Source: Pyxidicoccus caerfyrddinensis
GTDB taxonomy: Bacteria; Myxococcota; Myxococcia; Myxococcales; Myxococcaceae
Reading direction: 5' to 3'
Assembly: GCF_010894405.1 (NCBI RefSeq)
Contig: NZ_JAAIYA010000026.1
Span: 111,494 to 175,493, forward strand
Length of the DNA: 64,000 nt
Made by a program: the position numbers and the translations under genes. Of this stretch, positions 6,101 to 23,911 are shown one piece after another (the first letter of the stretch is position 1; each line of letters starts with the position of its first letter). The notes beneath the pieces are model-generated. The model had not been told where the DNA came from and searched no databases. It worked only from the letters and a program-made list of their open reading frames with translations.

Positions 6101-9100
6101 CTGCGAGGCCGGGCCGGACGGGGCCTCCAGCCCGTCACGCGTCCGGTCCTGCAGGCGCCCGAGGAAGGGCACCACCAGCAGCAGCCAGCGCGGGTCCGCC
6201 GGGTCCGTGGGGCCGTAGTCCTGCGGGTTGCTCAGCAGGGCCTGCTGCGTGCCGCTCGGGAGGAACTGGAGCGTCGTGGCCGCGGTGGCCTTCACGGGCT
6301 CGCCCTTCACCCAGTGCAGCGCGGTGGCCTCCACCAGCAACGTACCGGCGGGCAGCGCGGCCAGCTCCGGAGCGCTCCCTCCCGCGAGCATCGTCCGGAC
6401 CTCCTGCCCCAGGTAGCCCGCGAGCACCTCGCCCACGGGGTCCACGTCGTCGGTGGGCGAGACGGCATGCAGGTCGCTGTCCTTGAAGCGCTGGAGGAAG
6501 GCCTTGAGCCCGGCGGGCGAGGCGATGCGCACCTCCTGCAGCGCCGTCCAGCGTCGGTCGTTGGACAGGCGCGGCGTGGTGAAGCCTTCACCCGGCGCCA
6601 CGTCCACGAGCTGGTGCTCCACCACCGCGAGGAACTGCCAGGACCTGCCGTCCGACAGGCGGAACAGCAGGTCTCCGGCGCTCACCTCGAAGGCGTCCCG
6701 TGGCAGCGCGTGCTGGTTGAAGAGGATGCGCGCCGTGTGTCGGACGTGGGCCAGTGGCACTGCCCCCGCCGCGGCCGGGACGGTGAGCGTCACCTTCGAC
6801 GCGTCGTACTGGAGGCTCGCCGGGTAGGAGAGGAGGTCCTTCACCTCCAGGTAGCCGTTGAGCAGCAGCGTCTCCGTCCAGGTGCTGTCCCGCGACTGGC
6901 CGGTGTAGCCGAACACCAGGTCGCCCGCGGAGGAGCCCGCCACCTGCGCCAGCGTGGGCTGCGCCGGGAGCGGCTCCGCCTGGAGGAAGGTGCCCCAGCG
7001 GCAGCTCAGCAGCGCCTCCACGAACGAGGTGCGCAGCCGCAGCGTGGGGACGTCCACCACGCCGGTGGCCGGTAGCAGCACGTCGAAGGACAGCGCCACG
7101 AAGCCGGGCGCGTCCTGGCCCACCAGCGACATGCCGGGAAGCAGCTGCAGGCCCGAGCTGCCCGGAGAGGGCATGGGCGCGCGGTAGCGGCTCCAGGTGA
7201 GCTGGAGCGCGCCGGGGCCGGTCTCGAGCGCCACCTCCGGTGGGGGCCGCTCCAGCTCCAGGTCGTCCAGCAGGAAGCCCGACTCCCAGATCGCCCTTCC
7301 CCGGCCGGGAAACGTGACGGCCGCCGCATCCTGACTGGTGCCCACCACGCCAAAGCGCACGCCCGCGCGGAAGGCCGAGCGCGCCACCGGGGTGGCCGTG
7401 GGACGGACCGCGCCTGGCGCGGTGGCTCCGGGCACCACCGGCACCCAGCGCACGGGCCGGGTCCGCGGGCCCGGCGGCATCTCCTGGAGGGCGCGGCCCA
7501 GCCGCACGTCCACCAGCAGCGACACCCGGTACTCGAGGCCGCGCGGGTCCAGCTCCACGGCGACTTCCTTCGGTGACAGCGGCTCGGCCGCGTCCAGCTC
7601 GGCCGGCACCATGCGCACGGAAAGCGGGGACGCCTTCCCGGTGAAGGTGAGCGCGGGCAGCGGCACGTTCCAGGTGGCGCCGAACAGCAGGAAGGCGAGC
7701 TGCACGCCGTCGACGCGGAGCCCGTCCTTCTCCGGTGTGAGGGCCGCGGAGCGGACGGTGAGGCGCGGGGCGTCTCCCAGCTCTCCGTTCGCGAGCTCCA
7801 GCGGCCATTCGCACTCCGCCGGAGCGCCCGGGGACGCCTCCAGCGCCGCCGCCGTCAAAGCCAGCCCGCCGCCGGACGGCGGCCGCTCGAAGGTGAGCCG
7901 GAGCGCGTTGCCCAGGTCCACCAGCTCTCCGCCGCCGGACAGGGGCAACTGCACGCGGCCCACCAACTCCAGTCGCGTCACCCCGGCGGCATCGAGCCGC
8001 ACCCGCTCCAGCGTCAGCGGGTAGAAGCCCAGCCCGAAGAGGGTGAAGGCGTCGACGTCGGTGGGCGGCGCCAGGCGCCACTCGTAGCCGTTGAGGACGT
8101 TGTGCTCGCGCGAGCCCGCCTCGGGGTCATTCACGTCCTGCGCGGCGGCGGAGCGGGTGCTGTCGCGCCGGAACTCACCCGCCGCGGCCGGCAGGTCCCT
8201 GAACCAGAGGCCCCACGTCAGCGCGCCACCCGTGATGGGGTCCTTCCCCAGGCCCAGCGTCACCGCCTCCAGCGTGGACACCAACTCCACCGCGGCGCCG
8301 CCCTCCAGGCGCACCGCCGTCCGCAGCTGCGTGCCCACGAGGCGCGTGGCCTTGCGCCACAGGCCCCGCTGGTCCCTCAGCCCCTCGCCGGCCTTCGCAT
8401 GGGCAGCCATGCTGCCCGCCACCAGCGTGTACGCGTCCGCGGAGGGCGTGCCCGCCGCGAGCCGGATGCCTCCGTCCGCGCTCTCGAAGCGGCCGGTGAA
8501 GCCCTCCAGGGCGGCCTCGCCCTTCAGCTCCACCGAGGCCGCGGGTGCTCCCGCCGCGTTGGCCACCACCAGCGAGCCCGGGTACGTGCCCAGCGCCAGC
8601 GTGGGGCTCACCGTCCACGTGTGCGGCTCCACCAGCCCCTGGACGCGCACGGCGCCGCCGCTGGAGGAGAAGGCGTCCACCGCGTCGGCGCTCGCCAGGA
8701 CGGCCAGCTCCGAGAGGCGGGACCAGTGGTCCGCCAGCGTCTCGCGAACCAGTGGCCGGGGCGGCTCCGGCGGCGAGTCATCCGCTGTGGGGGTGACTTC
8801 GTCCGGGCGGCGCGTGGGCGGCTTCAGCCGGGCCAGGGCCTGCGGTTCGTCCGTGTACGGCAGGTCCAGGCGGAGCTGCACCGGCAGGGTGGTGCCGGCG
8901 TCCAGCGGCAGCCCGGAGGCATTGGCGCCCGGCTTCAGCACCAGGCCTGGCAGCGACAGCGACACGAGCGGCAGGTCTGGCCTCCCCTTCCACTCGCACG
9001 CGGGGACCTGGGGCCCCCGTGCCCGGGGCCACGCGGCGGCGCCGTTCGTCCCGGTGACGCCGAAGCGCCAGCCCGAGGGAAGGGTGAGGCCGTTCATCTC

Positions 9101-11182
9101 CACCACCGGGAGCTCGAAGGGCGCGAGCTGTCGGCTGGCGCTGGGGTGGTTGGCGGGAGTGCGGCTCTGGGTGAGCGGCAGCGCCTGAATCCAGGGCAGG
9201 GCGGGGTGGCGCTTCCAGACGAGCGGCAGGTGGCTCGCGAACAGGGACGGGGGCAGCAGGTTCCGGTCCGCCATCGCGCGCAGCACCTCCGCGTCCGCGC
9301 CGTAGTCGAAGGACCAGGTCTTCAGCTGCGCGCTGGGGTGGGCGACCCGCCCCGGCCGGCGCTGGAGCTGCAGCGTGCCGAGCCCCGCCGTCACCACCGC
9401 GGGGAAGGCATCCTCCGGGGACACGCTTCGCAGCGTCACCGGGCGCAGGCCGCCAGCCCAGTCCTCCAGGTCCGGCAGGGCGTCCTCCGTGCGCGGCGCT
9501 TCGCTGCCCAGCCACACGAGGCCGCTCACGCGCACCTCGGGCTCATGCAGCACCAACTGCACCGAAGCCAGCGCGAGCGGCGCATTGGCGTTGGCGCGCT
9601 GCAGGCGCCACGTGCCGGTGAGCCCACCGAGGTCGGTGAGCGTCAGGCTCCACGACTGCTCGCCGCGCTCCAGCGCGCCGTCCTCCGGCTTGTCGTTGCC
9701 GTAGGAGACGGCGCCCTGGAGCCGCGGCTCGGGCAGCGTGTCCGTGCTGGGGAAGCGGGCGAGGCCGGCGTCCAGGTACATCTGCTCGGTGAGGTTGGGC
9801 ACCGGCAGCTGGGCCCAGCCGTCCTCCAGGCGCATGAAGGCCCAGAGCAGCGCGGGCTCCACGGGCTTGGCGGGCGTGGTGGCCGTGCCGGCAGTCCACT
9901 CGGGCGTGGGCAGCCGCTGCAGGCCGCGCACCAGCCTTGGCGTGTCCACCGGGCTGAAGGCGGCCCGCACGCCGGTGACGGTGAAGCCCTCCGTCCACTC
10001 CGGCTGGGCGCGGGTTGCCTGGTACTTCGCGCTGGCACCGCCCTCGGGGCCGCTGCGGAGCGTCACCTCCACGGTGCCATCCATGTGGCGGCCCACCGTC
10101 ACGTCCTCGGGGACGGTGCGCGCCAGCGAGGTGGGGGGCGTGCGCGGGTCGTACGGCGAGGCGTCGCTCAGCAGCAGCGCCAGCTCCTCACGGCCGAAGT
10201 GCAACTGGTGCCAGGTGGGCTGCTCCTGCCACGCCGGAATCTCCCAGGTCATCCGCGGCACCGTGCGCGGATTGACCACCTCCAGCGTCACCCAGCCGGG
10301 ACCCTGGGAGGCGGGGCCCTCCAGCTGCGGATTGCCAGGGTTGAGCGCGCTGGCGAGGCGCCCCCAGGACGCCGTCAGCGCGGTGCGCTCGACCGCGGTG
10401 AGCCGCTCCTCCTCGAGGGACAGCAGGTAACGCTGGAGGGTCGTCGTCCGCGAGCCCTCCGGCAGCACCGGCGCCAGGAGGAAGGGCGCGGCGAAGCGGT
10501 CCTTGCCCTGCGGCTCCCACGGCAGCGCGATGCGGCCGAACACCGACAGGCCGCTGGCATGCACGGAGAGCGCGGAGGTGAGGCACGCCGGGCCCGTGGC
10601 ATTGCGCGGCTCCAGTGGGGCCACGTCCAGCGTGAGCGCCCGGAACAGGCGGTCGCGCGCATTGTTCTGGGCGCACAGTTTGTCGAGGGGAATCTCCCCC
10701 GCGAGGCACGTCAGCTCCAGGTCCGACTGCCCCGACGCGGCGGGCGGGGTGCCCGCCCGGCCCGGGGCGCTGGCGGACCGGCCCGGGCCTCCCATGAGGA
10801 TGTCCAGCAGGCCGCGGCGCGAGTGCTCGTCCCAGTCCGTGGGGCGGGCCTGCACGAGCAGCAGCGCCAGGAAACCCTTCGTCACCTTGTCGTGCAGCTC
10901 CTCGGCCGTGGCGGGCAGGGACGGCGTGTTGCCGCCGCCGTCGTGCTCCCAGCGGTACTTCACGTCGCTCGGCGCCACCTCCACGGAGCGGACGTGGCAC
11001 AGCACCACCACCGTGGTGGGCGCGAGCAGCTGCTCGTTGTCCACCTCGCGCCCGTTCAGGTCGAGGAAGAGCTGGCGGAACGCGTAGGACTTCTTCGGGT
11101 CCTCGGCGCGCACCAGCTCCGCCTCGGCGCGCCAGAACGGGCCGCGGAGGACCACCTTCTTCAAGTCAATCGATGAAGACAT
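3179..11182 (-). CDS. Giant protein (2667 aa), unknown family; third gene of the giant operon
   Basis: Uninterrupted 8-kb ORF with native G/C third-position bias. AGGAG lies 8 nt upstream of the ATG, and the start is only 21 nt after the stop of the upstream 3472-aa gene. No signal peptide, TM segment, Walker A, HExxH or RHS/YD motif seen by eye. Confidence 0.85.
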   Translation of the reverse strand: MSSSIDLKKVVLRGPFWRAEAELVRAEDPKKSYAFRQLFLDLNGREVDNEQLLAPTTVVVLCHVRSVEVAPSDVKYRWEHDGGGNTPSLPATAEELHDKVTKGFLALLLVQARPTDWDEHSRRGLLDILMGGPGRSASAPGRAGTPPAASGQSDLELTCLAGEIPLDKLCAQNNARDRLFRALTLDVAPLEPRNATGPACLTSALSVHASGLSVFGRIALPWEPQGKDRFAAPFLLAPVLPEGSRTTTLQRYLLSLEEERLTAVERTALTASWGRLASALNPGNPQLEGPASQGPGWVTLEVVNPRTVPRMTWEIPAWQEQPTWHQLHFGREELALLLSDASPYDPRTPPTSLARTVPEDVTVGRHMDGTVEVTLRSGPEGGASAKYQATRAQPEWTEGFTVTGVRAAFSPVDTPRLVRGLQRLPTPEWTAGTATTPAKPVEPALLWAFMRLEDGWAQLPVPNLTEQMYLDAGLARFPSTDTLPEPRLQGAVSYGNDKPEDGALERGEQSWSLTLTDLGGLTGTWRLQRANANAPLALASVQLVLHEPEVRVSGLVWLGSEAPRTEDALPDLEDWAGGLRPVTLRSVSPEDAFPAVVTAGLGTLQLQRRPGRVAHPSAQLKTWSFDYGADAEVLRAMADRNLLPPSLFASHLPLVWKRHPALPWIQALPLTQSRTPANHPSASRQLAPFELPVVEMNGLTLPSGWRFGVTGTNGAAAWPRARGPQVPACEWKGRPDLPLVSLSLPGLVLKPGANASGLPLDAGTTLPVQLRLDLPYTDEPQALARLKPPTRRPDEVTPTADDSPPEPPRPLVRETLADHWSRLSELAVLASADAVDAFSSSGGAVRVQGLVEPHTWTVSPTLALGTYPGSLVVANAAGAPAASVELKGEAALEGFTGRFESADGGIRLAAGTPSADAYTLVAGSMAAHAKAGEGLRDQRGLWRKATRLVGTQLRTAVRLEGGAAVELVSTLEAVTLGLGKDPITGGALTWGLWFRDLPAAAGEFRRDSTRSAAAQDVNDPEAGSREHNVLNGYEWRLAPPTDVDAFTLFGLGFYPLTLERVRLDAAGVTRLELVGRVQLPLSGGGELVDLGNALRLTFERPPSGGGLALTAAALEASPGAPAECEWPLELANGELGDAPRLTVRSAALTPEKDGLRVDGVQLAFLLFGATWNVPLPALTFTGKASPLSVRMVPAELDAAEPLSPKEVAVELDPRGLEYRVSLLVDVRLGRALQEMPPGPRTRPVRWVPVVPGATAPGAVRPTATPVARSAFRAGVRFGVVGTSQDAAAVTFPGRGRAIWESGFLLDDLELERPPPEVALETGPGALQLTWSRYRAPMPSPGSSGLQLLPGMSLVGQDAPGFVALSFDVLLPATGVVDVPTLRLRTSFVEALLSCRWGTFLQAEPLPAQPTLAQVAGSSAGDLVFGYTGQSRDSTWTETLLLNGYLEVKDLLSYPASLQYDASKVTLTVPAAAGAVPLAHVRHTARILFNQHALPRDAFEVSAGDLLFRLSDGRSWQFLAVVEHQLVDVAPGEGFTTPRLSNDRRWTALQEVRIASPAGLKAFLQRFKDSDLHAVSPTDDVDPVGEVLAGYLGQEVRTMLAGGSAPELAALPAGTLLVEATALHWVKGEPVKATAATTLQFLPSGTQQALLSNPQDYGPTDPADPRWLLLVVPFLGRLQDRTRDGLEAPSGPASQLQVDPVLNLERRRKQPAALPPLALALSGWADRKAAAVTFTSLDTARARSWSRLDPLSLEESWFRVQHPLPEPRFDTLQSVLAARPETPARLSRATALQYAFDPVRNAYPPGQPKASGGVDPLPGQARLQWRPDALLALQAVLTQRGSSTPLPSGWLLTALQLVSGGWLRPSTATGTRRFPAATALAPRADAVRAPMSLAVSPYLGLGFRPAAPREDDIPELVVVELLCLDRTRRALLPAASHVKEGGEGLDAVRASAIAWAREMHRRLTPESPLAVLRFREVYRTVASGEDEAVLTTAYSFSLVPGLERTGGLSRRVLKLRSPPARLRFRDGHFGGQELPQEVRPLELAPPQVTGVQPIHRAHRPASGPQQQSPRDWPWGLSALRTTVHYTHEQEGATGTLGPRDGVPDKPFSLWWQALQHQVQFRSATSAAGPTAGLPPLFRARAIKGLLPVLPQLPLPLMSPRVLLNVDEPDRMKRWQPVLPGTVRFHLTGSRPGVMLAMRHQLLRQAGLDPTRDEAHRGQGMVSGSIPVQHRVPRPVPLRENDARHPGAALRTWASHFEPGHSVLATASPADEAFIASFGDGPVHRLRLVLEAPLHGAIPASWDGTLTLSADVNAGASLADWTLALEIPLDGKVFAYGPAEPAEGGRLGFKLAGTGGRSAEEVRADFSQRLAPGRVLAVHARVGRVTGAEGFIQTLTFPLRVVDPGVLPLPLEPVFLHFEDPEYNRHLASTTRRATQLVKTLDGTQKALHAVTLATDRGEYNPDSRMALRFDWDDGTTGLPALLSLLRVGPGGVTRPLSVREDGVDTPALTVAPERLREVSLLDLRDGTEPAVLGPGEALMLKLTLKALPEASSRVTENKDIFLTVGITAEPVTPVPEAAYALLRRQQPVEGDPQVECARFAWGPAPARVELVCPEDLRTEVVRRRAVFHWRDTVRTGTLRGYDIQKLTQSGATHIPGVTELPKPPPQNS

Positions 11183-11203: not shown

Positions 11204-14200
11204 TCAGAGCGGGCGGGAATCCAGCGGGTGGATGGGGCTGGGACGAGCGCTGCCCCGCCGGGCGCGGATGCCCAGCTTGCGGTCGTCCATGCCGCGCGAG
11301 TGGGACTGCTTGTGGAGCCGCTCCACCGCGGCCTTCTCGGCGCCGCGGGGGAACAGCGCGCGCAGCCGCAGCGCCTCGTCGCGCGTCATCAGCCCGTGGT
11401 AGCGCAGCACGGCCCCGCCGATGACGAGGCGCGCGGACAGCGGGTGCGCCGCATCCAGGGTGGGACGCAGCGGCGCGGTGAAGGGCACCTGGAGCACGCG
11501 GGCATCGAGGTCGGCGACGAGGGCCTGGAGCGCGGCGACGAAGGGCGCGTCACCGTCCAGCGCCAGCAACTGCTCGCGCTGTGTAATGTCGTCCAGCGGG
11601 CCCCTCCAGTGCACGGCCGTGGGCTCCACGGTGAGCCGCGCGGAAAGCGCGTCGGGGAGGTCGCCCTGGCGGGGCCGGCGCTTCACCGGCGCCAGGTCCA
11701 CCTCCTGGTCCACGTCCACCAGCTGGAGCAGCAGCCGCACCGTGCCCTGCCACTGCGCGTCCCCGGGCATGGCGAGCAGCGCCGCGCGCTGGGCATCGGT
11801 GGGCGCCGGGGCCGTCCACGTCACCGTCCCCGTCGCGAAGCGCAGCTGGGCGCGCACGAACTCGGGCAGCGTGTCCTCCGCGGGGCGCTCGCCCAAGTGC
11901 GGCACCGTCCGGTCCGTGTCGATGGCCGCGAGCAGGCGCGTGCGGGCGCCGAGGAACGCGGCGTCCCCGGCCAGCGCGGCCAGGGCCTCGCGCTCGGCGT
12001 CCGTGGGCGCGGGGCCCTTCCACCGCAGCTTCGCGTCGGTGATTCCGAGCCGGCCTCGCAGGACGGCTGGCAGCTCCCCGGCGAGGGGCCGGGCGGCGGG
12101 CAGCGGCCGGGTGGCCACGGCGGCGTCGAAGGCCTCCTTCAGCCGGGCGAAGGCATCGGCCAGGGCCGTCACCCGCACCCAGCGGTCGATTTCGAGCTGG
12201 TGCTCGGCCCACAGGTGCCCCTTCCACACCAGCGTGGTGTACGCGGTGCCGGCGGCGTCCGTGCGCAGCTCCACCTTCTGCGCGAGCGCCGGTGGCAGCT
12301 GCTCCGGCCCCCGCGGCGCCACGACGGTGGTGACGGTGTCTGCGCCCGCGCCAGCCGCGGTGGCGATGAGCGTCTCCACCGTGCGGCGGAGTTCCTCGTC
12401 GCCGGGCAGGGCGCGCAGCGCCTGGGCCTGTGCCGCGTCCAGGGGGCCCGTCCACACCAGCGGCAGGTCCTCGGGCTTCTCGAAGTCCACCACGTCAGCG
12501 AGCGACGCGGGCACGTCCATCGCCGAGGCCACGGGCACGCGGGCGTACCAACCGTCATGCACCCGGCCCACCGCCTGGCGGTCCAGCGCGTCCAGCACGG
12601 CGAGGTTCTGCCGGTCCTCGTGCGTGAGGACTCCCACGAAGGACAGCCGCCGCGCGTTGAAGGCCAGCTTGGAGCGGGTGGGCTCGGGGATGGAGGCCTG
12701 CTGCGGCGCCGTGTACGGGCGCGACAGCTCCAGCTCCGTCACCTGCTGCACGGTGACGGCCAGCAGGAAGCGGTCCTCCTCCGTGCCGAGGGGGACCTCG
12801 GGCAGCGACAGCGCGGCGATGTCCGCGAGGAAGTGCCCGCCGAGCTGCCGCTTCGCGAAGGCGCCTGCCGCCGCGTCGAAGTAGAGCTCCGCCTGCACCT
12901 CCACGTTGCCCTGGTGCTCCTCCACCACCTGGTAGACGACATCCAGGTCCGGCAGCCACGAGGGGCCGCGCCCGCCGGGCCGGGGCCGCTCGCTGCCCCA
13001 GCGCTGCTGAGCGCGCTCCGGCAGCGACTCCCACAGCCGCCGCAGCGGAATGCCCAGGCCCCGCGCGCGCACCGTCAGCCCGGACGCCGGAGTCGTGCCG
13101 CCGAAGGGCGGGGTCGGCACCCAGCCGGTGCGTGTCATGCCCTCCACCCAGGCCACGGGCTTCTCCGGCGCGCGGTACTCGAAGTCGCGCTGCCGCACCT
13201 CGTTGAGCGGGGACACGGTGCTGTGCGTCTGCGCCATCAGGAGGAGCCGGTGCTTGTAGTAGAAGGGCAGCCCCTCCCACTGGATGACCTGCGCGCCCTG
13301 CTGGAAGGCGCCCACCCGCAGCGGCAGGTCCAGTCCCCGCGCGTCCTCCACGCTCAGCCGCCCGGACAGGTCCAGGTGCTCCGGCTGCTCGGGGAGCGTG
13401 CCGGGGATTTCCGGCACGCGGTCCTCCACCGGCGTCAGCACCAGCGGCCCTGACAGGCCCGCGGCGCCCTCCAACGCGGACACCCAGCCTGGGAAGGCGA
13501 AGCCGCGCAGCAGTGTGAAGGCCACCTGCCGGAAGCCGAGCTGCCGCGCCAGCGTCTGGTTGCGCTCCATCAGCGCCTGCTCCGGGTGCTGGGCCACCAC
13601 CACCTCCCACGTGCTGCCGGGCTCGGAGGGCACCACGGGTGGAAGCGGTTCATCGGGAGCGGACGGCTCGAGCGGCGCGTCCGCGTCCAGGCGGGTGGAG
13701 CTGAGCACCAGCGGCATGTCCACGGCGCGGGTGCGGTCCATCACCACGTCGAGCCCGCCCGCGAGCGGGTCGGGCCGGGCGGGCTCCACGGCCGGGGCGT
13801 CCGGGTACAGGAGCGGCGACTGGCGCAGCCCCTGCCACAGCAGGTCGTAGCGCGCGAAGGGGCGCACGTAGAACCGGTAGTTGTGCGCCCACGCGTCCTC
13901 GAGGAGGTGGTCGTACGTCAGCCGGCCGCTCTCGTCCGGGCTGGAGTACGCAGGTGAGCTGGCGCGCGGGTACGCCGTGGCCACCCACGGCCCTTCGGGA
14001 GCCACGAGGGGGCCGTCCTGGGTGAAGTCGATGCGGCCGGTGGCGTCGAAGAAGCGCTGCGACCAGGTCAGCACGTCCGGCAGCACGTCCTCCAGCGCGC
14101 TGCCCGAGGCGGGGATGCGAATCTTCTGCTCCGCGGGCATGCCCGGGTCGGTGCTGGAGAGCGACTCCGCGTACCGCCGGAAGCGCCGCCACTGCACGGC

Positions 14201-17200
14201 CTCCGGGCGCAACTTCTCGTCGGACGTGTCTTCGTCATGGGCGAGGAGCGCGGCCAGCGGCTCGACGTCGGCGGGGAAGTAGGTGGTGCGCTCGTCGGTG
14301 ACCTGGAAGAGCGGCTCCAGGCGCATCCCCAGGAGGGCGGTGAGCGCGGCGGGCTCCTGGGCGAGCGTCGTGCGCAGCAGCGCGCGCGCGTCGGCGGACA
14401 GCGTGTGCGGCGACTGCGCCAGCACCAGCTCGGCGGCCGGCGTCTCACGGTACGTCACGTAGGCCGGCAGCGGCTCCTGGGTGAGCAGGGCCTGCGCCTC
14501 CGGGGACAGGGGCCTGCCCAGGGCCACGCCCGCGCCGGGCAGGTCCGCGAGCGACAGCGCCTCCGCCGCGCTGCGCGTCCTCAGCAGCACCTGCGTCTTC
14601 CCATTCAGCGGCAGCACGAAGGTGCGCTTCGACACCGTCCCGGTGGTGGCGCCCGGCTCGGGCTCCAGCTCCGCCTGTCCGGCGGCGGGGTTCGTCTGCT
14701 CCACCACGCTGCACGTGGTGGCCGGCTTCAGGTGGAGGACGACGTCCAGCGGGGCCCCGGCGGGGCCTTCCAGGTGGATGGCCGAGTACAGCGCGCGCTG
14801 TCGCACCACCGGCCGCAGGCTGAGCTGCACCAGCGCGAGCAGGTCCTCCGCGACGACGGCGCCCTCCCGCAGCGCGACGGCACGTCCCGGCTGGAAGAGC
14901 AGCTCGACATGGAGGTGCCGGGCCGCTTCGTCCGGGAGGACGCCCTGCTGTGCCAGCACGTCACGCACGGCGTCCAGCAGGGCCTGGCCCTTCAGCACCT
15001 CGCCCGTCCGCGGCTCGCGCAGGCTGAAGGCCATGCTCAGCCCCAGGCGCTGGAGCACGCCCCAGCCGTACGGGTCCGCCTGAGCCGCCGTGGCGCGCAG
15101 CAGGTCCGCGAAGCTGCCCGGCTGGGTGGGCGGGCTGATCTGCAGGTCCACGGTGAAGGCCGGCAGTTGCGAGTCCCCGGCCGGGCGCTGGAGGCGCTGG
15201 ACGATGCCCGCGAGCACCGGGTGCAGCGCGCTGGTGCGCGACGGCGCGGGCGAGTCCGTCAGGCCTGGCCAGTGCGGCCACTCGAGGAGGGACTCGCGCC
15301 AGGACGGACCGGGCGTGAGCGAAAGCTGCGAGCCCGCCGCGCGCGCGGCCGGCGTGCGGCGCCGCTGCAGGGTGCTGGGGTACCAGGCCTCCCACGCGCT
15401 GGTGGCCAGCGTGTCACCGGGGACGAGTTGCATGTCCCCGGCCGGCAGCATCTGCACTTCCTGCAGGCCGCGCAGCGCGCGGGACAGCCGGTCCGCGTCG
15501 CCGAACGTCTCAGTGGTGTGCGCGTCGGTGTCCAGCTCCAGCAGGTGGTAGCCGGCATGCAGGTCCAGCGGGTGGTCCGGCGCGCCGCTGGGGCCCTGGT
15601 TCCACCGGAACCGGATGCACCGCACGCCCGCCGGGTGCTTCTGGTGGAGCACCCCGGTGAGCTGGCCATTGAAGCGGAAGGCCTCCGGGTGGCCCACGGT
15701 GCCCACCGGCATGGGGAAGTGCGCGTCCTCCACGGTGGCGCGTACGTCCTCGGGCGGCAGCACCGGCAGCACCACCGGCGAGGGCAGCCACTCCAGCTCG
15801 GCGGGGCGGCGCTCCTCGCGGCGGCGGTTGTCCGTGTCGTCCGCGGGGGCGTCCGCGCGCACCACGCGCAGCAGCAGCTGCACGGGTGCGAGCGCGGAGG
15901 GCACGCCGTTGCCCGACTCCGTCTGCATGAACAGCCGCCAGGCCTCGGGGCGCCAGGCATCATTCTCGGCGGGGAGCACGCGCAGCTCGCGCAGCTTCGT
16001 GAGCGGCACCTCGGCGACGCGCTTCTCGCGGGGGCCGGTGGGCACCACGGTGACGCGCACGTCGGTGGGCAGTGGCCGCGCGTTGCTGGTGGGCAGGGAG
16101 CGGGCGCCGGCGCGCTGGGTGGCGCTGTCCAGCCCGTAGCTGCCGATGGGCAGCGACGTCTCGCGCCGGAAGACGAGCACGTATGTCTTCACCGGCACCT
16201 GCGGCTGGCCGGGCGCTGCGGATGGTTCGGACCACTCCAAGAAGACGCGGTCCGGCGTCACCACCCTCGGCGTCCCCACGTCGCGCCGGGCGAGGATGGC
16301 GAGGTCCACCTTGTAGCGGACGACGCACTCGGCGTTCACCGGCACGAGCGGCGGCTCGCTGGGGTAGCGCGTGGCCACCACCGTCAAGGGGCGGCCCGCG
16401 TTGCCGGCGAAGTCGTAGGGCGTAATCGTGTAGAGGTAGCTGCGGCCGCTGAGGGGCAGCGCGGCCAGGTCCTCCGCCGTGTCCTCGTGGAAGTGGTCCA
16501 CGAGCTGGAAGCGCGGCTGCAGGCGCTTGAGGGCGCCGCCCTCGCGGTGCAGCGTCTGCGCGCCCTTCAGCGTGTAGACGGCTTCCGGGGTGTTGCTTTC
16601 CAGCCCGCGGCGGCGGACGTGGTAGTGGACCAGGTGGTGCTCGGGCGAGGCCTGGGCCGGCGTCAGCCCCGCGCGCGGGGGCTGCTCCCAGACCAGCTCC
16701 CACGCCAGGGCGATGGTGCGCGCGTCGGTGAGCTGCTGCACCCGCCGGAACTGGGGCGGATTGCGCGTGAAGTTCGTGTCGCGCACGTTGAAGGTGCGCA
16801 CCGACACCTCGGACCCGGAGCAGGTGGTGTCCTCCACGCGGATGCGCTGGCGGAGCCTGGGCTCGGGCTCACCCCTCTCGGGCACGCCATCCAGCCACGC
16901 GGGCAGGCCACCGCTCACGCGGAACACCAGGCCCATGTGCAGCGCGACGGAGCGCTCACGCTGCTCCGGCGTCAGGCCGCTGCCGTCCGGCGACGCGGCC
17001 AGCGCGCGCAGGTCCGCGACGATGTCATGCACCACCATGCCGCGCAGCTGGTGCGCCTGCTGCTCCTCCAGCATCTTGCGCAGGCCCGGCGCATCGTCCG
17101 GGACCTTGCCGTCGTCGGAGTACACGGTGGTCCTGTCCTGGTACGCCTGTCCAAGCAGTCGGTCGTACTCCACCCGCGTGTCGTCGCGCTTGAAGAAGGG

Positions 17201-20200
17201 CGAGCCCCGGAACTGCTCCACCGCGCCGCGCACCGCGGCCTCGAAGGCGTTGTCGGTGGGGTTGTGGACGCGGTCGTCCGCCACCACGTCCTCTGACCGC
17301 GTCGGGGGCAGGCGAGCCGGATCTCTCAATCGAATGGTGGCACCCAGCGCGTCCACCTCGGTGACGAAGGCATGGCGCAGGTAGCGCGCCAGCGTGAAGG
17401 TCTCGTCCCCCACCTCGGGCACGCCCGTCTCCGAGTACCTTTCCCCCTTTTTCTCCAACTCCGTCTCCCAGTGGGCGCGCCACGCCACGTCCTGGGAGGG
17501 CTGACCGGGGGTGGGCGCGTGGGGCTTCCACATGCCCGTGAGCGGGTCGAGCTGCTCCAGCGTGTACGTGTCCTTCGCGGCCCGGGGCACGGTGAGGACG
17601 AAGTCGTTGTAGCCGGGCTGAGCCCACGCACCCTCCGCGGGCGGCACGGGCAGGAAGCCGGGCTCCTCCTCCACCTCCCCGCTCGGGGTGGGCCGCTCGC
17701 CCTGTGGCATCAGTACGAAGTAGTGGGTGCCCTTCGGGTCCTCGGAGCGGATGGCGAACACCGTGTAGCCCGGGGCCTCGAACGTGCCTTCCGCCAGCGT
17801 CCGGCGCTGGAGGGCCGGGGGTGCTTCTTCCGTACGAAGGGTGTCGGCGCGCAGGGCGGCGGGCGCGGGACGGCCGCTCCGGAGGGCGGCGCCCTCGACG
17901 CCGGGGATGCCCTCGACGTCGGTGGCTTCCAGTCCGTAGTCGAGCACGTGCTTCGTGCGCTCCAGGGCCTCGGCCACCTTGCCCTCCCTCATACCGATGT
18001 GCGCGCTGAGGTGGAAGCTGCGGCCCATCACCGACAGCGACAGGGTGCCGGTGCCGCGCAGGCCGATGCCGTTGGGGGACAGGCCGACCATGCCCACCTC
18101 CAGCCCGGCGGTGAAGTCGATGCCGAAGCTGAAGCGGAACGACTTCTTTATCTTGATGAAGCCCAGCTTCAGCTTGATCCAGAACTCGATGGCGAACCGG
18201 ATGTGCGCCTCGATGCCGATGCCGCCGTAGAGCGCGGAGCTGCCCACCGGGTCCTTCAGGCTGAGCAGGCCGATGTAGCGGGCGCCGTATGCGAGGCTGG
18301 CCTGGGCGCTGACGCGCACACCGACGATGCCCAGGTTCACCTGGGCGCTGAAGTCCAGCTTCGCGCGGGCGAGGAAGCTGGTGCCGGTGACGAGCTCCTC
18401 GCGCGACAGCCGCCAGATGAAGCCGCCGCGCAGCTCCGCCTCCAGCGGGCCCAGCTTCTGGCTCCAGCGCAGCATGTTGGGCCAGCCCAGCTCGTAGTGC
18501 AGCAGTCCCGGCTCCACCAGCAGGGTGGCGGAGAACTGGCAGCTGGTGAGGGCCTTCTCCACGAACTCCGGCAGCTGCGGGTGGGGCCCGAGCTGGCCGT
18601 TGGGGTTGGAGGCCACGTGCGCCAGCAGCCGCTTCTGCCGCGGTGACAGCAGCACGAAGCCGGAGACGAAGGGGCGCTCGCGCAGGCCTTTGTAGTTGCT
18701 GACGTAGTCGTAGTAGTTCGCGTTCAGCCAGCCGCGCACCGCCATGAAGAACGTCAGGTCGCTGCGGAAGGCGATGACGGCGTCCAGCAGGAAGAGGCAG
18801 GAGATGAGCTTCTCGGCATTCTCATCCCACTGCAGCGGCGACGCGGACGCGGACGTCTGGGAAATCATCGCGCGCAGCACGATGGTCCACCGCGGGTCCT
18901 GTCCGGGGTCCTCCAGGTCCAGCGCCCACCGGTCCCGCTTGGAGAGGTCACCCTGCGTGCGCGACAACTTCTTGAGCTCCTTCAGCAGCTCGCGCACATC
19001 GTTGGCCTGGTCCGCGGCCTTGATGCTGGCCAGGGTGTAGCGGTACCCGAAGCCCAGGCCCACCTCGCGCACGTACAGCTGCACGACGGGAATCATCAGG
19101 CTGATCTGCCGGGCCTCCAGGTAGATGAACCAGGCGCGCAGCCAGGGCGAGGACTCGTCGCGGCGCACGCGCAGGAAGGAGAAGGCGGCGGCGAAGGTGG
19201 GCAGGCCCTGAATCTGGAGCGTGCCCTCGCCGGAGAAGCCCTTCTCCGTGGTGCTGTCCACGAAGTCCACCACGCCGTTGAGGCGGAAGGCGGCGCCGAA
19301 GTTGAGGTTGACCGGCAGGTTGCCGAAGTGGAGGCGCGGCAGGAAGTGGCCCTCCTCCGGCAGGCCGATGTAGAGCCGGTGGTAGTCCACGCGGGTGTCC
19401 GGCGTGTCGCCCGCGCCCTGCGCGAACTTGAGCTGGCCGGTGAGCAGCATGGCCCCGTCGCCGCCGAAGACGTCGGCCTGTGGGATGAAGCCGATGCCGC
19501 GCAGCTCCAGCTCGAAGCAGCCCAGGAAGCTGAAGGACAGCGGCTTGGGCAGCTCGATGAGGAAGCGCACGTGCTTGGAAATGACGCGCGCGTCGCCGGT
19601 GAGCGGGCACTCCACCAGGTCGATGCGCAGCTTCGGCAGCAGCGCCAGCGCACCCTCCGCGTCGTCGCTCTCCGCGAGGCGGAATTGCGCGCTGCCGGTG
19701 AGCACGAAGTACAGGTGGAAGCGCCCATCGTTGACGAAGCGCAGGCCGATGGCGTCCACCTGGAACTCGAAGCGGGTGCTCTGGCAGTGCAGCAGCTTGG
19801 AGCCCCGCAGGCGCGCGCCGCCGGACACCAGCGTCAGCGCTCCGTCGCGCTGCGCCAGCTGCAGCGAGATGTCCGCCATGGCGTCGCCCACCAGCGCGGG
19901 CGGCATCGGTCCGGAGCCGTTGAGGGTGAAGTCCTGGACCCGGTTCTCCACGATGACGAGCCGGCTGTCATTGAAGCGGAAGCGTGTGTCCAGGCCGTTG
20001 AGCTTCGCGGGCCGGTCGGTCACCGTCGCGGTGACGTTGAGCCCCTTGGGGGTGAGCGCGAAGTCGGTGATGGCGAAGACGATGGGCTCGTCGCTGACGT
20101 GGAGGTACTTCACCTCGAAGGACGCGCCGGGAGCCTGCTGGAGCTGGTAGTTGTACTTGTCCGTGGCCAGCGTGAAGAGGTGGTAGCGCGTCTTGCCGTT

Positions 20201-21622
20201 CTCGGTGATGGGCGTGCCCTTGAAGCCCCAGGTGAGGCCCAGGTACTCCACGGGCTTGCCGTTCTCGTCCTTCGGTGCCAGCTCCGCCTCGTTCGCGTAC
20301 AGCTTGAGGCCGTCGCTGTGCCGCACGGCGAAAGAGAAGGTCTCCCAGTTGAAGGCCAGCTCCGCGGTGGTCTCCAGGTTGAGCGGGCCGAAGCTCACCT
20401 TCACCGTGACGGGCACGGCGATGGAGTGGTTGGGGATGTCCAGGGTGATGGCGCTCAGGTTCGGCTTCACCTGGAGGAACTGCGGCGCGTCCTCGCCGCC
20501 CGGCTCCTGCTTGAGGAAGGGCAGGGTGAAGGGCGCCTTCTCCAGGTTCAGCTTGAAGCCGAAGCTCCAGTCCTCCGCCCGCATGCTGAAGGAGTCCGTG
20601 GCGGTGGGCAGGCACAGCGTGTCGGGGTCGCCGTAGTTGAGCGGCTCCAGCGCGGTGGTGAGCTGGCGGAGGAAGTGGGGCAGCCGGGCCTCCTTCCACT
20701 CGAACTCCGCCAGGGCCAGCGTCACGCGCTGTTTCGCGGCGATGGACAGCTGGAGCAGCGGGTCTGGCGACGCGCGGCCCTGGTCGGCGTGGACCTCGCG
20801 GCCCTCGTCGCGCTCCCAGGCGAAGTCGCTCGTCACCGTCAGACCGGAGCCCTCGGCGAAGGTGAGGTAGAGCCCGGCCTGGCTCAAGGAACGGTCGTCG
20901 CCCTCCGCCTTGGCGTTCACCACGACGCTGAGCTGCGTGTCGTCCGGGAGCTGGAGATTGAGCCCGGGCAGGGGCAGCGCGCGGCCCATGCCGCCCAGCT
21001 CCACGTCCACGCGGACCTCGCGCAGCGGCTGTCCGAACACGAGGCGGAAGGTGATGGCCTGCCGCGCGAAGGTCTGCCGGTCGAGCTGCTCCCAGGTGAG
21101 GGCGAGGCACTCGCGGCCGAGGTGGAAGCCGGCGATGTCCAGCTCGCTGCCATGCTCGAACAGCCCGGGCAGGAAGGCGCGCAGGCGCACGTCGGTGGCG
21201 GTCAGCTCCAGCGCGCTGCTCACGCGCAGGGTGCCCCGGAACGAGAAGCCGGGGGCCTCACCCGCCCCGCCGTCCAGGCCGAGCTGCCCCGCGTCCAGCT
21301 GCACGCAGATGGGGATGTCGTGGAGGATGAGCTCCAGCTCGTCGGTGAACCTCACCTCCGCGCGCAGGAAGGTCAGCCCGTCGCGCACCTCGCCCACGGT
21401 GAGCCGCGCGCCGTCCTGGCCGGCCAGCGGCACGGACAGCTCGCCTTCGATTCCCAGCCACGCGGTGGCGTCGAGCGTGCCGTTCCCCGTGCGCGCCTCG
21501 TAGTCGAGCACGTGGACGCCGCCGAAGAGCTGGCGCAGCGCGGGTTCTGGGAACATGCCGCCGGGAATGGCGGTATCGGCGAGGAAGCCATCGAGGCGAC
21601 CCAGGGAGCGGTAATAGGGCAT
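11204..21622 (-). CDS. Giant protein (3472 aa), unknown family. N-terminal ~1200 aa is rich in amphipathic beta strands, the middle carries FN3-like modules, and the C-terminus has six ~70-aa tandem repeats
   Basis: Uninterrupted 10.4-kb ORF starting 15 nt after the stop of the 757-aa gene. Motifs: AIEFWIKLKLGFIKIKKSFRFSFGIDFTAGLEVGMVGL (alternating polarity); SGRSYLYTITPYDFAGNAGRPLTV (FN3 F/G-strand-like); repeated LxWxGPxxxxxxxxLxxLxGD units near the C-terminus. Confidence 0.85.
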   Translation of the reverse strand: MPYYRSLGRLDGFLADTAIPGGMFPEPALRQLFGGVHVLDYEARTGNGTLDATAWLGIEGELSVPLAGQDGARLTVGEVRDGLTFLRAEVRFTDELELILHDIPICVQLDAGQLGLDGGAGEAPGFSFRGTLRVSSALELTATDVRLRAFLPGLFEHGSELDIAGFHLGRECLALTWEQLDRQTFARQAITFRLVFGQPLREVRVDVELGGMGRALPLPGLNLQLPDDTQLSVVVNAKAEGDDRSLSQAGLYLTFAEGSGLTVTSDFAWERDEGREVHADQGRASPDPLLQLSIAAKQRVTLALAEFEWKEARLPHFLRQLTTALEPLNYGDPDTLCLPTATDSFSMRAEDWSFGFKLNLEKAPFTLPFLKQEPGGEDAPQFLQVKPNLSAITLDIPNHSIAVPVTVKVSFGPLNLETTAELAFNWETFSFAVRHSDGLKLYANEAELAPKDENGKPVEYLGLTWGFKGTPITENGKTRYHLFTLATDKYNYQLQQAPGASFEVKYLHVSDEPIVFAITDFALTPKGLNVTATVTDRPAKLNGLDTRFRFNDSRLVIVENRVQDFTLNGSGPMPPALVGDAMADISLQLAQRDGALTLVSGGARLRGSKLLHCQSTRFEFQVDAIGLRFVNDGRFHLYFVLTGSAQFRLAESDDAEGALALLPKLRIDLVECPLTGDARVISKHVRFLIELPKPLSFSFLGCFELELRGIGFIPQADVFGGDGAMLLTGQLKFAQGAGDTPDTRVDYHRLYIGLPEEGHFLPRLHFGNLPVNLNFGAAFRLNGVVDFVDSTTEKGFSGEGTLQIQGLPTFAAAFSFLRVRRDESSPWLRAWFIYLEARQISLMIPVVQLYVREVGLGFGYRYTLASIKAADQANDVRELLKELKKLSRTQGDLSKRDRWALDLEDPGQDPRWTIVLRAMISQTSASASPLQWDENAEKLISCLFLLDAVIAFRSDLTFFMAVRGWLNANYYDYVSNYKGLRERPFVSGFVLLSPRQKRLLAHVASNPNGQLGPHPQLPEFVEKALTSCQFSATLLVEPGLLHYELGWPNMLRWSQKLGPLEAELRGGFIWRLSREELVTGTSFLARAKLDFSAQVNLGIVGVRVSAQASLAYGARYIGLLSLKDPVGSSALYGGIGIEAHIRFAIEFWIKLKLGFIKIKKSFRFSFGIDFTAGLEVGMVGLSPNGIGLRGTGTLSLSVMGRSFHLSAHIGMREGKVAEALERTKHVLDYGLEATDVEGIPGVEGAALRSGRPAPAALRADTLRTEEAPPALQRRTLAEGTFEAPGYTVFAIRSEDPKGTHYFVLMPQGERPTPSGEVEEEPGFLPVPPAEGAWAQPGYNDFVLTVPRAAKDTYTLEQLDPLTGMWKPHAPTPGQPSQDVAWRAHWETELEKKGERYSETGVPEVGDETFTLARYLRHAFVTEVDALGATIRLRDPARLPPTRSEDVVADDRVHNPTDNAFEAAVRGAVEQFRGSPFFKRDDTRVEYDRLLGQAYQDRTTVYSDDGKVPDDAPGLRKMLEEQQAHQLRGMVVHDIVADLRALAASPDGSGLTPEQRERSVALHMGLVFRVSGGLPAWLDGVPERGEPEPRLRQRIRVEDTTCSGSEVSVRTFNVRDTNFTRNPPQFRRVQQLTDARTIALAWELVWEQPPRAGLTPAQASPEHHLVHYHVRRRGLESNTPEAVYTLKGAQTLHREGGALKRLQPRFQLVDHFHEDTAEDLAALPLSGRSYLYTITPYDFAGNAGRPLTVVATRYPSEPPLVPVNAECVVRYKVDLAILARRDVGTPRVVTPDRVFLEWSEPSAAPGQPQVPVKTYVLVFRRETSLPIGSYGLDSATQRAGARSLPTSNARPLPTDVRVTVVPTGPREKRVAEVPLTKLRELRVLPAENDAWRPEAWRLFMQTESGNGVPSALAPVQLLLRVVRADAPADDTDNRRREERRPAELEWLPSPVVLPVLPPEDVRATVEDAHFPMPVGTVGHPEAFRFNGQLTGVLHQKHPAGVRCIRFRWNQGPSGAPDHPLDLHAGYHLLELDTDAHTTETFGDADRLSRALRGLQEVQMLPAGDMQLVPGDTLATSAWEAWYPSTLQRRRTPAARAAGSQLSLTPGPSWRESLLEWPHWPGLTDSPAPSRTSALHPVLAGIVQRLQRPAGDSQLPAFTVDLQISPPTQPGSFADLLRATAAQADPYGWGVLQRLGLSMAFSLREPRTGEVLKGQALLDAVRDVLAQQGVLPDEAARHLHVELLFQPGRAVALREGAVVAEDLLALVQLSLRPVVRQRALYSAIHLEGPAGAPLDVVLHLKPATTCSVVEQTNPAAGQAELEPEPGATTGTVSKRTFVLPLNGKTQVLLRTRSAAEALSLADLPGAGVALGRPLSPEAQALLTQEPLPAYVTYRETPAAELVLAQSPHTLSADARALLRTTLAQEPAALTALLGMRLEPLFQVTDERTTYFPADVEPLAALLAHDEDTSDEKLRPEAVQWRRFRRYAESLSSTDPGMPAEQKIRIPASGSALEDVLPDVLTWSQRFFDATGRIDFTQDGPLVAPEGPWVATAYPRASSPAYSSPDESGRLTYDHLLEDAWAHNYRFYVRPFARYDLLWQGLRQSPLLYPDAPAVEPARPDPLAGGLDVVMDRTRAVDMPLVLSSTRLDADAPLEPSAPDEPLPPVVPSEPGSTWEVVVAQHPEQALMERNQTLARQLGFRQVAFTLLRGFAFPGWVSALEGAAGLSGPLVLTPVEDRVPEIPGTLPEQPEHLDLSGRLSVEDARGLDLPLRVGAFQQGAQVIQWEGLPFYYKHRLLLMAQTHSTVSPLNEVRQRDFEYRAPEKPVAWVEGMTRTGWVPTPPFGGTTPASGLTVRARGLGIPLRRLWESLPERAQQRWGSERPRPGGRGPSWLPDLDVVYQVVEEHQGNVEVQAELYFDAAAGAFAKRQLGGHFLADIAALSLPEVPLGTEEDRFLLAVTVQQVTELELSRPYTAPQQASIPEPTRSKLAFNARRLSFVGVLTHEDRQNLAVLDALDRQAVGRVHDGWYARVPVASAMDVPASLADVVDFEKPEDLPLVWTGPLDAAQAQALRALPGDEELRRTVETLIATAAGAGADTVTTVVAPRGPEQLPPALAQKVELRTDAAGTAYTTLVWKGHLWAEHQLEIDRWVRVTALADAFARLKEAFDAAVATRPLPAARPLAGELPAVLRGRLGITDAKLRWKGPAPTDAEREALAALAGDAAFLGARTRLLAAIDTDRTVPHLGERPAEDTLPEFVRAQLRFATGTVTWTAPAPTDAQRAALLAMPGDAQWQGTVRLLLQLVDVDQEVDLAPVKRRPRQGDLPDALSARLTVEPTAVHWRGPLDDITQREQLLALDGDAPFVAALQALVADLDARVLQVPFTAPLRPTLDAAHPLSARLVIGGAVLRYHGLMTRDEALRLRALFPRGAEKAAVERLHKQSHSRGMDDRKLGIRARRGSARPSPIHPLDSRPL
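11207..12460 (-). repeat. Six protein-level tandem repeats (~68-76 aa each) forming the C-terminal 418 aa of the 3472-aa protein
   Basis: Repeat starts: LVWTGPLDAAQAQALRALPGDEEL / LVWKGHLWAEHQ / LRWKGPAPTDAEREALAALAGDAAF / VTWTAPAPTDAQRAALLAMPGDAQW / VHWRGPLDDITQREQLLALDGDAPF / LRYHGLMTRDEALRLRALF. Each linker ends in an acidic residue followed by LPxxLxxxL. Coordinates come from my residue counting. Confidence 0.7.
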
Positions 21623-21637: not shown

Positions 21638-23911
21638 CTACGAGAGGGGAAGCTCGTCGGGGCGGATGACCCACAAGGTCCCGACGATGCGGTTGTCCCA
21701 GGTGACGGAGTTGGCGGCCCAGGTGGTCTGCGTCTGGGCCCAGTTCTGGCCGCGCAGCGCCTGGATGTTGGCGTCGTTGACGCCGTTGAGCGCGCGCTGT
21801 TCGACCTGGTAGCGGTCGATGACGTAGTCGCGCAGCACGTTGTGCAGGGGCGACACCAGGCACCCCGCGGAGCCGGTGCCGGTGTTCTGGCCGCTCATGG
21901 TGCCGCGGTGGATGCGGACGTTCACCTTGCCGCCGTGGGTGGGTGACGTCTGCGGGTCGTGGCCCGCCTCGGGCACGTCCTCTGTGACGTGCTCGCCGAA
22001 GTAGAAGCGCGCCTCGCGTAAGCCGTCGTAGGCGGTGACGTCCGGGTCCACGACGGTGAAGGTGTAGTTGCGGAACTGCGGGCCACTGCCCGTTCCGGGC
22101 GAGCGGTAGCTGGCCCAGTGGTAGCGGCGGTTGCCCCGCACGGACGACAGGTTCTGGTCGTTGGCAGGGTAGTTGCGCGAAGTGAAGCTGGTGTAGCGCA
22201 CCTGCGCGTGCACCTCGCCGTTGTGCACGACGAACATCACCCCGTCGTAGTGGTCATAGAAGCGGGGGTTGGCCGGGGTGGCGGGGACGGCCGGACCCAG
22301 GTCATAGGCCAGCGCGGGCAATTCGCCGCTGAGGCCAGCGGGGATGTGCCAGGCGGAGGTTCCGCCGCCGAAGTCCGGGTTGCCGTCCAGGGTGAGGGTG
22401 CGCTGGACGCGGTCGAAGGCGGTGATGCGGTAGGTGCGGCGGGGCCGCGCGGTGTCCGAGGGCAGGTAGACGGTGTCGAAGCGCGCGTTGAGCTTGTTGA
22501 TGTTGGGGGTGCCGTCCAGGCGCACCGTGTTGTCCGCGGTGCGCGTGGCGGAGGCGCCCTGCAGCCGTCCGCCCAGCGGGTCGATGAGCACCAGCACCTG
22601 CCGCAGGCTGATGCGCCACGGGGACGGATTGCCGCCGAGGTTGGGCTCGCTGGCGCCGGCCTCCAGCGTCACCTGCCGGTTGGCCACGTCCACCGCGGTG
22701 ATGCGGTACCACTTCCGGGGGCGCGCGGTGTCCGCGTCGAGGTAGAGCAGGTCCTTCCCGGCGCGCACCCGGCTCAGGTCCATGGTGCCGTCGAGGGTGA
22801 CCTGGTTGCCCGCGGCGGTGGCGGCGGCGCCCTCCGGGTCCAGGAAGTCGATGGTGGTGGCCGCCGTGGGCGTGCCAGGCACCGCGCCGGCGAGCCAGGG
22901 GTCGTCGAAGAGCGAGTAGAACTCGACGATGGCCTCGAGCTGGAAGAGGTTGAGCGCGTCGCGGTCGTTGAACTCGAAGGGCGGGGCGGTGCTGCCCGCG
23001 GGGGCGTGGCCCGCGCGCTTGAGGAGCTGCTCGCGGTAGAGCGCCTTCTGGTGGTTGCCCACCTGCCGCCACTGCGCGGCGGTGAGGTGGAGGCGGTCCT
23101 TCGCCTCCTTGAGCACGCTGAACGGATAGAGCGACGCCTGCACCAGTCCGAGCAGCGCGGCCGGCGTCGCCGCGTCGATGACGGGCCACTTCCTGGGCGC
23201 GAGGGTGAGGAGCTCATCCACCTTCGGCTGCCCCTCCTCCACGAAGTCGCGCATCACGTCGTAGAGGTGCGACGGGTCCGTGGTGCCGGAGAAGGTGAGC
23301 ACGGAGAAGCCCACCTCGCGGGTTCCCGCCTGGCCTGCGACCGGCGCGGCCCGGCCGATGGCATGTCCCGCCGTCACCGGCACGTCCACCTGCCCGCGGA
23401 TGAGCAGGTCCACCACCCGCGCGCGGTTGAGGCCCTGGTTGGGGATGAGGAAGTCCAGCTGCTCCGCCAGCGCGGCCTCCAGGGAGCCCGTCTCGATGTC
23501 CAGGTAGATGAAGCCACGGAGGCCGCCCAGCTGCTGCGCGCGCTGTTGGAAGGCCTGCGCGCCCGTCATGACGAAGGACGGGTGGAGGTACAGCTTCACG
23601 CGGGGCGGGAGCGGCTCGTAGTCCTCGGGCAGGTCGAAGGGCTCCGTCGGGTCGGGTGCTCCACCCAGCGGCGGGCGCGCGGACAGCGTGCCGGCCATCA
23701 CCGCGAGAAGCTGCCCGGTGTCGGTGGTACGGAGCCGGAGGTGGTCGCGGAAGGCGTGCTGAGGCCCGGGCGTGGACGGGGCCGGCCCATAGCCGTGGAC
23801 GCGCGTCCATGGCGTGGGGGCGACGAAGGGCGGGTTGATGAACAGCCGGAGCGGTTTGGCCAAGCGCGACTCCCCCTCAGATTCGCGTCGATGCGGCGCT
23901 GACGCTTCCAT
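21638..23911 (-). CDS. 757-aa protein of unknown family with an internal duplicated module and a C-terminal YkuD (L,D-transpeptidase)-like His/Cys motif; first gene of the giant operon
   Basis: ORF with native codon bias and no signal peptide (MEASAPHRRESEGESRLAKPLRLFINPPF). C-terminal motif VNVRIHRGTMSGQNTGTGSAGCLVSP. A 122-bp divergent intergenic region lies upstream. Confidence 0.8.
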   Translation of the reverse strand: MEASAPHRRESEGESRLAKPLRLFINPPFVAPTPWTRVHGYGPAPSTPGPQHAFRDHLRLRTTDTGQLLAVMAGTLSARPPLGGAPDPTEPFDLPEDYEPLPPRVKLYLHPSFVMTGAQAFQQRAQQLGGLRGFIYLDIETGSLEAALAEQLDFLIPNQGLNRARVVDLLIRGQVDVPVTAGHAIGRAAPVAGQAGTREVGFSVLTFSGTTDPSHLYDVMRDFVEEGQPKVDELLTLAPRKWPVIDAATPAALLGLVQASLYPFSVLKEAKDRLHLTAAQWRQVGNHQKALYREQLLKRAGHAPAGSTAPPFEFNDRDALNLFQLEAIVEFYSLFDDPWLAGAVPGTPTAATTIDFLDPEGAAATAAGNQVTLDGTMDLSRVRAGKDLLYLDADTARPRKWYRITAVDVANRQVTLEAGASEPNLGGNPSPWRISLRQVLVLIDPLGGRLQGASATRTADNTVRLDGTPNINKLNARFDTVYLPSDTARPRRTYRITAFDRVQRTLTLDGNPDFGGGTSAWHIPAGLSGELPALAYDLGPAVPATPANPRFYDHYDGVMFVVHNGEVHAQVRYTSFTSRNYPANDQNLSSVRGNRRYHWASYRSPGTGSGPQFRNYTFTVVDPDVTAYDGLREARFYFGEHVTEDVPEAGHDPQTSPTHGGKVNVRIHRGTMSGQNTGTGSAGCLVSPLHNVLRDYVIDRYQVEQRALNGVNDANIQALRGQNWAQTQTTWAANSVTWDNRIVGTLWVIRPDELPLS
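22337..22807 (-). repeat. Tandem duplication of a ~65-68 aa module inside the 757-aa protein
   Basis: Copy 1 is NQVTLDGTMDLSRVRAGKDLLYLDADTARPRKWYRITAVDVANRQVTLEAG...SPWRI (22604-22807). Copy 2 is NTVRLDGTPNINKLNARFDTVYLPSDTARPRRTYRITAFDRVQRTLTLDGN...SAWHI (22337-22531). The DNA cores also match (GGTGATGCGGTA...CGCGCGGTGTCCG). Confidence 0.75.

Follow-up and report, generated by a model that had tools for sequence, protein, structure and literature searches.

Three genes in the same orientation form an operon on the minus strand of the 64-kb window (the whole stretch of DNA analysed), and all features described below are on this strand. The first gene, A (21638..23911), encodes a 757-aa multidomain protein according to the ORF list and translation. 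Gene B (11204..21622) encodes a 3472-aa protein and the third gene, C (3179..11182), encodes a 2667-aa protein, both with no recognised domain. The gap is 15 nt between A and B and 21 nt between B and C, and the GC3 signature of real genes is observed in all three reading frames (0.94 for gene A). The products amount to 6,896 aa in total. This total, and the numbering of His668 and Cys684 discussed below, had been given correctly in the initial annotation of this DNA. The gene A product is a 100% match to WP_164000173.1 of Pyxidicoccus caerfyrddinensis, a 'hypothetical protein' at NCBI, where it is annotated with 741 aa and starts at residue 17 of the 757-aa ORF. For A, B and C, no significant match was found in Pfam, NCBIfam, PADLOC or PHROGs. 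No export signal or transmembrane segment was found in the three proteins, and Rhs, PAAR and other known trafficking domains are absent from them. The operon contains no immunity-like small gene, and an Imm16/Imm57-like gene was not detected. The possibility that the window encodes a type VI secretion system (T6SS) or a contractile injection system was rejected, as no such genes are present in the 64 kb.

The motif RIHRGTMSGQNTGTGSAGC corresponds to residues R666–C684 of the gene A protein (21860..21916) and reads H-x12-S-A-G-C-L-V-S-P. According to conservation and hhalign pairing, His668 (21908-21910) and Cys684 (21860-21862) are the predicted catalytic residues, and Ser681 (21869-21871) and Gly683 (21863-21865) belong to the same motif. 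Lys662 (21926..21928) precedes His668 by six residues. Cys684 is the sole Cys of the 757-aa protein. The relaxed pattern H-x(8,18)-[ST]-x-G-C-[ILVMF] occurs only at this site in the six frames of the window, and it arises in 0.1% of 20,000 shuffles of the gene A protein.

The residues H668, S681, G683 and C684 do not vary among 34 homologues with 35–59% identity. Across 182 domain sequences, retention is 100% for His668 and 99% for each of Ser681, Gly683 and Cys684; the Cys is lost in two of the 182. The position of Lys662 is Lys in 158 of these sequences. Two residues before the Cys, Ala is the most frequent residue (66%), followed by Glu (11%), Gly (8%) and His (2%), and two residues after the Cys, Val (92%) or Thr (8%) is found. 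This conservation is a stronger argument than the rarity of the pattern for the motif being real. The initial annotation had recognized a YkuD/L,D-transpeptidase-like motif at the C-terminus of the protein, and had named conservation of the His and the Cys in orthologues as a test. The assignment holds, as both predicted catalytic residues are kept in almost every relative.

The motif lies in the last 210 residues, 548–757 (21641..22270), which form a YkuD-like domain. The AF2 model of the full-length protein has a pLDDT of 88.5 and a pTM of 0.91. The domain is composed of a β core, the His strand, the Gly-rich loop, the Cys, a strand, a long helix (690–709) and a final strand that bears a conserved W-x-I-R-P-D-E tail. 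It has the YkuD-type β-sandwich fold, and the fold search with this domain recovered YkuD enzymes alone. The order strand (His)–loop–Cys–strand–helix agrees with the secondary-structure line of Ldtfm in a published alignment, and the motif is of the form His-x(n)-[ST]-x-Gly-Cys-hydrophobic, as in the YkuD superfamily. The Archangium orthologue, 57% identical, is named 'YkuD domain-containing protein' in UniProt.

Some results count against the YkuD assignment. Significance is reached by no sequence model in the Pfam, NCBIfam and PDB profile searches. The canonical pattern [ST]-His-Gly-Cys-[IVL]-[RN], in which the Cys has a His at −2 and an Arg/Asn at +2, is not found. In Pfam, the gene A protein itself is unmatched, and sub-threshold matches were obtained to Tlde1_dom in three of 34 members (best E 0.027) and to YkuD (PF03734) in one of 27 relatives (E 0.13). 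These weak matches fall to just the two expected families. A HMMER profile built from the family gathers about 214 clusters, without extending into the canonical YkuD proteins. Searches of PDB sequences by phmmer and hmmsearch with A, its A1/A2 profiles, B and C gave nothing relevant; a match to neutral trehalase (E 1.1) was regarded as noise. The hhalign profile comparison with 12 Tlde1 sequences covered 34 columns with the motif at their centre (probability 54%, P 1.3e-4). In this alignment, His668, Ser681, Gly683 and Cys684 are paired with H121, S128, G130 and C131 of Tlde1a, and Lys662 is paired with Arg115. The comparison with five aligned Ldts was weak (P 0.023), and comparisons with single E. 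coli Ldt sequences were uninformative. Arg115 of Tlde1a forms a salt bridge with the carboxylate of the D-amino acid (PMC9638812), and from the alignment Lys662 may be its equivalent.

Two peculiarities pointed out in the initial annotation disappear on comparison with known enzymes. The spacer had been considered shorter than usual, whereas the spacing in E. coli LdtB and LdtC is likewise H-x12-S-x-G-C. The loss of the second His had been considered odd, but this His is also missing in the genuine enzymes LdtC and LdtD (S-S-G-C), DpaA (S-I-G-C) and Tlde1b/c (S-x-G-C). The canonical Ldts (PF03734: B. subtilis YkuD, E. coli LdtA-E, E. faecium Ldtfm and M. tuberculosis LdtMt2) are among the closest known systems. 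In contrast to them, the gene A family has no Arg/Asn at Cys+2, usually no His at Cys−2, and no signal peptide or lipobox for Sec or lipoprotein export. The T6SS effectors Tlde1/Tae5 (PF10908, formerly DUF2778; Tlde1a structure 7UMA) are also among the closest known systems. The suggested likeness to Tlde1 does not extend to the genetic context, since the window has no T6SS. The distance from His to Cys is 16 in the gene A domain, compared with 10 in Tlde1a and 8 in Tlde1b. Tlde1 proteins are small (about 170 aa) and consist of a single domain, and their genes lie in T6SS clusters next to a Tldi immunity gene. The gene A domain, unlike Tlde1, is the C-terminus of a 757-aa protein followed by the two giant proteins, with gene B directly downstream and no obvious immunity gene. 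The YkuD-fold L,D-carboxypeptidases Csd6 (H. pylori), Pgp2 (C. jejuni) and Bd1075 (Bdellovibrio) show 8–12% identity. Each of them is, unlike the gene A protein, a stand-alone exported enzyme that acts on cell shape and has an NTF2-like accessory domain.

Other domains precede the YkuD-like domain. A degenerate LytM/M23-like domain is probably located at residues ~100–215 (23267..23614, approximate boundaries), as placed within residues 1–547. It has the LytM fold and contains the strand motif V-x-V-x-A-G-H-A-I-G. It lacks the zinc ligands H-x3-D and H-x-H. No His within residues 1–547 is kept in at least 70% of the homologues, and H110 and H183 vary. As no zinc-ligand His is conserved, the domain is judged from the sequences to be degenerate and probably non-catalytic. 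The degenerate LytM domains of EnvC, NlpD, DipM and SpoIIQ are periplasmic amidase regulators or channel builders; in contrast, an amidase partner is absent from the window. A helical domain at residues ~228–340 (22892..23230) is defined by the AF2 model and by conservation, with the invariant residues K289, L296, E326, E330 and P338. It is followed by two tandem small β-barrel repeats at residues ~360–430 and ~431–525 (22337..22834), which are an internal duplication (47% identity, E 8e-18) with β strands in the AF2 model.

Among 1.84 billion proteins, the family accounts for about 214 clusters, and the pattern scan of 185,579 species genomes detected 13 loci. Its members are scattered over Myxococcota, Actinomycetota, Cyanobacteria, Clostridia, Chloroflexota, Desulfobacterota, Bacteroidota and Gammaproteobacteria. 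By a heuristic test, a signal-peptide-like N-terminus was found in none of the 160 members starting with Met. Searches of IMG/VR and phage records found no family member, so that an origin from a phage tail lysin has no direct support. PG_binding_1 is fused in three relatives (P0052, P0105 and P0118) and is also found in neighbouring genes. At locus L009, an Amidase_2 gene adjoins the homologue. A link to a delivery machine is observed only at three related loci (L009, L014 and L017), where contractile-injection baseplate genes lie beside the homologue. At L014 and L017, the homologue is directly upstream of hub-like, Phage_base_V, PAAR, gp25 and Baseplate_J genes, and at L009, Baseplate_J is upstream of the homologue.

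The giant downstream protein is the conserved partner of gene A. The gene B product is 62% identical to the neighbour in Archangium and 40% identical to that in Crocosphaera, and it has no match in the PDB. Its N-terminal ~85–145 residues (21188-21622) are a module common to the giants downstream of gene A homologues in other phyla, and this module was aligned across ten proteins. A 443-aa protein at another locus (L012) consists of the N-terminal module of the giants, a β-barrel and a YkuD-like domain. No homologue of gene C was found in the related loci fetched. The B and C proteins are unrelated to each other, and BLAST detected no internal repeats in either. A divergent 390-aa neighbour was considered as a conserved fourth component and was rejected (E 0.4 against the Archangium neighbour, no Pfam match).

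We consider that residues 548–757 probably belong to the YkuD (L,D-transpeptidase/L,D-carboxypeptidase) superfamily as a catalytically competent but strongly diverged domain, with a signal-less, effector-like or wall-breaching role exerted together with the giant partner. We infer that the substrate is peptidoglycan; the LytM-like fold, PG_binding_1 in relatives and the Amidase_2 neighbour link the protein to it indirectly. In the proposed mechanism, His668 would activate the thiol of Cys684, which would then attack the tetrapeptide stem of peptidoglycan at the carbonyl group of its third residue, an L-centre. D-Ala4 would be released and a thioester formed on Cys684, and the thioester would be resolved by water (carboxypeptidase), by a free D-amino acid (exchange) or by an amine acceptor (transpeptidation). 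Ser681 and Gly683 may shape the active-site loop as in Tlde1a, and Lys662 would stand where Arg115 of Tlde1a does. The zinc-less LytM-like domain, the helical domain and the two β-barrels may target the protein to the cell wall and to partner proteins, or act as a scaffold for them. The gene A protein would be made with no signal peptide and would act with the giant encoded immediately downstream. Such an activity would be delivered by a route other than Sec and would be effector-like or wall-breaching, rather than that of a housekeeping periplasmic transpeptidase. The absence of an export signal or transmembrane segment from the three proteins and of injection genes from the window counts against such access to a cell wall. 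The lack of an immunity-like small gene in the operon, and of family members in the phage and viral collections searched, also speaks against this explanation.

The protein resembles polymorphic toxins in several respects. Polymorphic toxin systems include L,D-peptidase toxin domains (Zhang et al. 2012, as cited in the preprint 10.1101/2020.02.18.954545). The likenesses are a YkuD-type domain that forms the C-terminal part of a large multidomain protein, a patchy distribution that resembles horizontal transfer, and shuffled modules, as in the 443-aa L012 protein. On the other hand, Rhs, PAAR and other known trafficking domains are missing from A, B and C, as described above.

A YkuD fold with a working Cys-His pair may also process, cross-link or acylate proteins or peptides in the cytoplasm, instead of acting on peptidoglycan. 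The candidate substrates may be the giants B and C, by maturation or isopeptide-type cross-linking, or a peptide containing D-amino acids. This explanation, which we consider rather unlikely, would account for the lack of signal peptides and transmembrane segments in A, B and C and of secretion machinery in the window. It would also account for an active-site periphery unlike that of peptidoglycan enzymes (no Arg at Cys+2, no His at Cys−2) and for the tight conserved pairing with the giant, as B could be the substrate. However, all the characterised YkuD-fold structures recovered act on peptidoglycan stem peptides or on the peptidoglycan–protein link, and the LytM-like fold is present in the same protein. 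PG_binding_1 occurs in relatives, and Amidase_2 and PG_binding_1 proteins are encoded nearby. The lack of a signal peptide is also shared by T6SS effectors of the same superfamily (10.1101/2020.02.18.954545).

Peptidoglycan may be the substrate in another sense, with a transpeptidase tethering B and/or C covalently to it and the operon building a wall-attached surface structure. The models would be E. coli LdtA-C acting on Braun's lipoprotein and the tethering of outer-membrane proteins by other L,D-transpeptidases. The motif spacing is that of the Lpp-anchoring LdtB and LdtC, co-transcription with a giant is conserved, the N-terminal module of the giant is conserved across phyla, and the LytM-like domain could bind peptidoglycan. 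We nevertheless regard this anchoring role as improbable: export signals are absent from the enzyme and the giants, the C homologue is missing at other loci, and at three loci the neighbours are baseplate, spike and PAAR genes, not surface-protein genes. An ordinary L,D-transpeptidase or carboxypeptidase of the producer wall, acting in 3-3 cross-linking or cell shape like Csd6, Pgp2 and Bd1075, is very improbable. A signal peptide or lipobox was found in none of 160 members, and the family is rare and patchy. Moreover, the domain is always in large multidomain proteins adjoining giant genes, and one family copy lies next to integrases on a plasmid of Streptomyces. A chance look-alike motif or a non-catalytic relic domain, consistent with the lack of significant matches in Pfam, NCBIfam and PDB sequence searches and with the two members that lost the Cys, is already close to refuted by the retention of His (100%) and Cys (99%) among sequences otherwise 27–59% identical, by the fold search and by the shuffling result.

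Enzymes with the YkuD fold are responsible for β-lactam-insensitive 3-3 cross-links and for the tethering of envelope proteins, and they also act as toxins of the T6SS. The family described here is a branch of this superfamily wholly missed by the Pfam and NCBIfam models. It has a new architecture (LytM-like, helical, two β-barrels and YkuD-like), with a predicted intact Cys-His centre and no export signal. It offers the first testable biochemical handle on an operon of 6,896 residues otherwise with no recognisable content, and on giant proteins conserved in myxobacteria, cyanobacteria, clostridia and actinomycetes. If the probable YkuD enzyme is delivered into other cells, L,D-peptidase effectors extend beyond the T6SS; if it is active in the producer, it may point to an unknown way of moving giant proteins through or onto the wall.

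As a more speculative proposal, which is doubtful at present, the pair of A and giant B (here with C) would be an undescribed, horizontally mobile cell-envelope system of at least eight phyla. The signal-less LytM-like/YkuD-like enzyme would open or edit peptidoglycan for the giants, as a new route of delivery or installation. The partners, domain-less proteins of 1,800–3,800 aa, would carry the portable ~85–145-residue N-terminal module as a loading or recognition tag. The pair may sometimes be plugged into contractile-injection baseplates and sometimes work alone. If true, this system would be more than a new Tlde1-like toxin. As a separate observation, DUF6603 proteins recur beside the actinobacterial homologues; neither a connection with B or C nor any literature on them was found.

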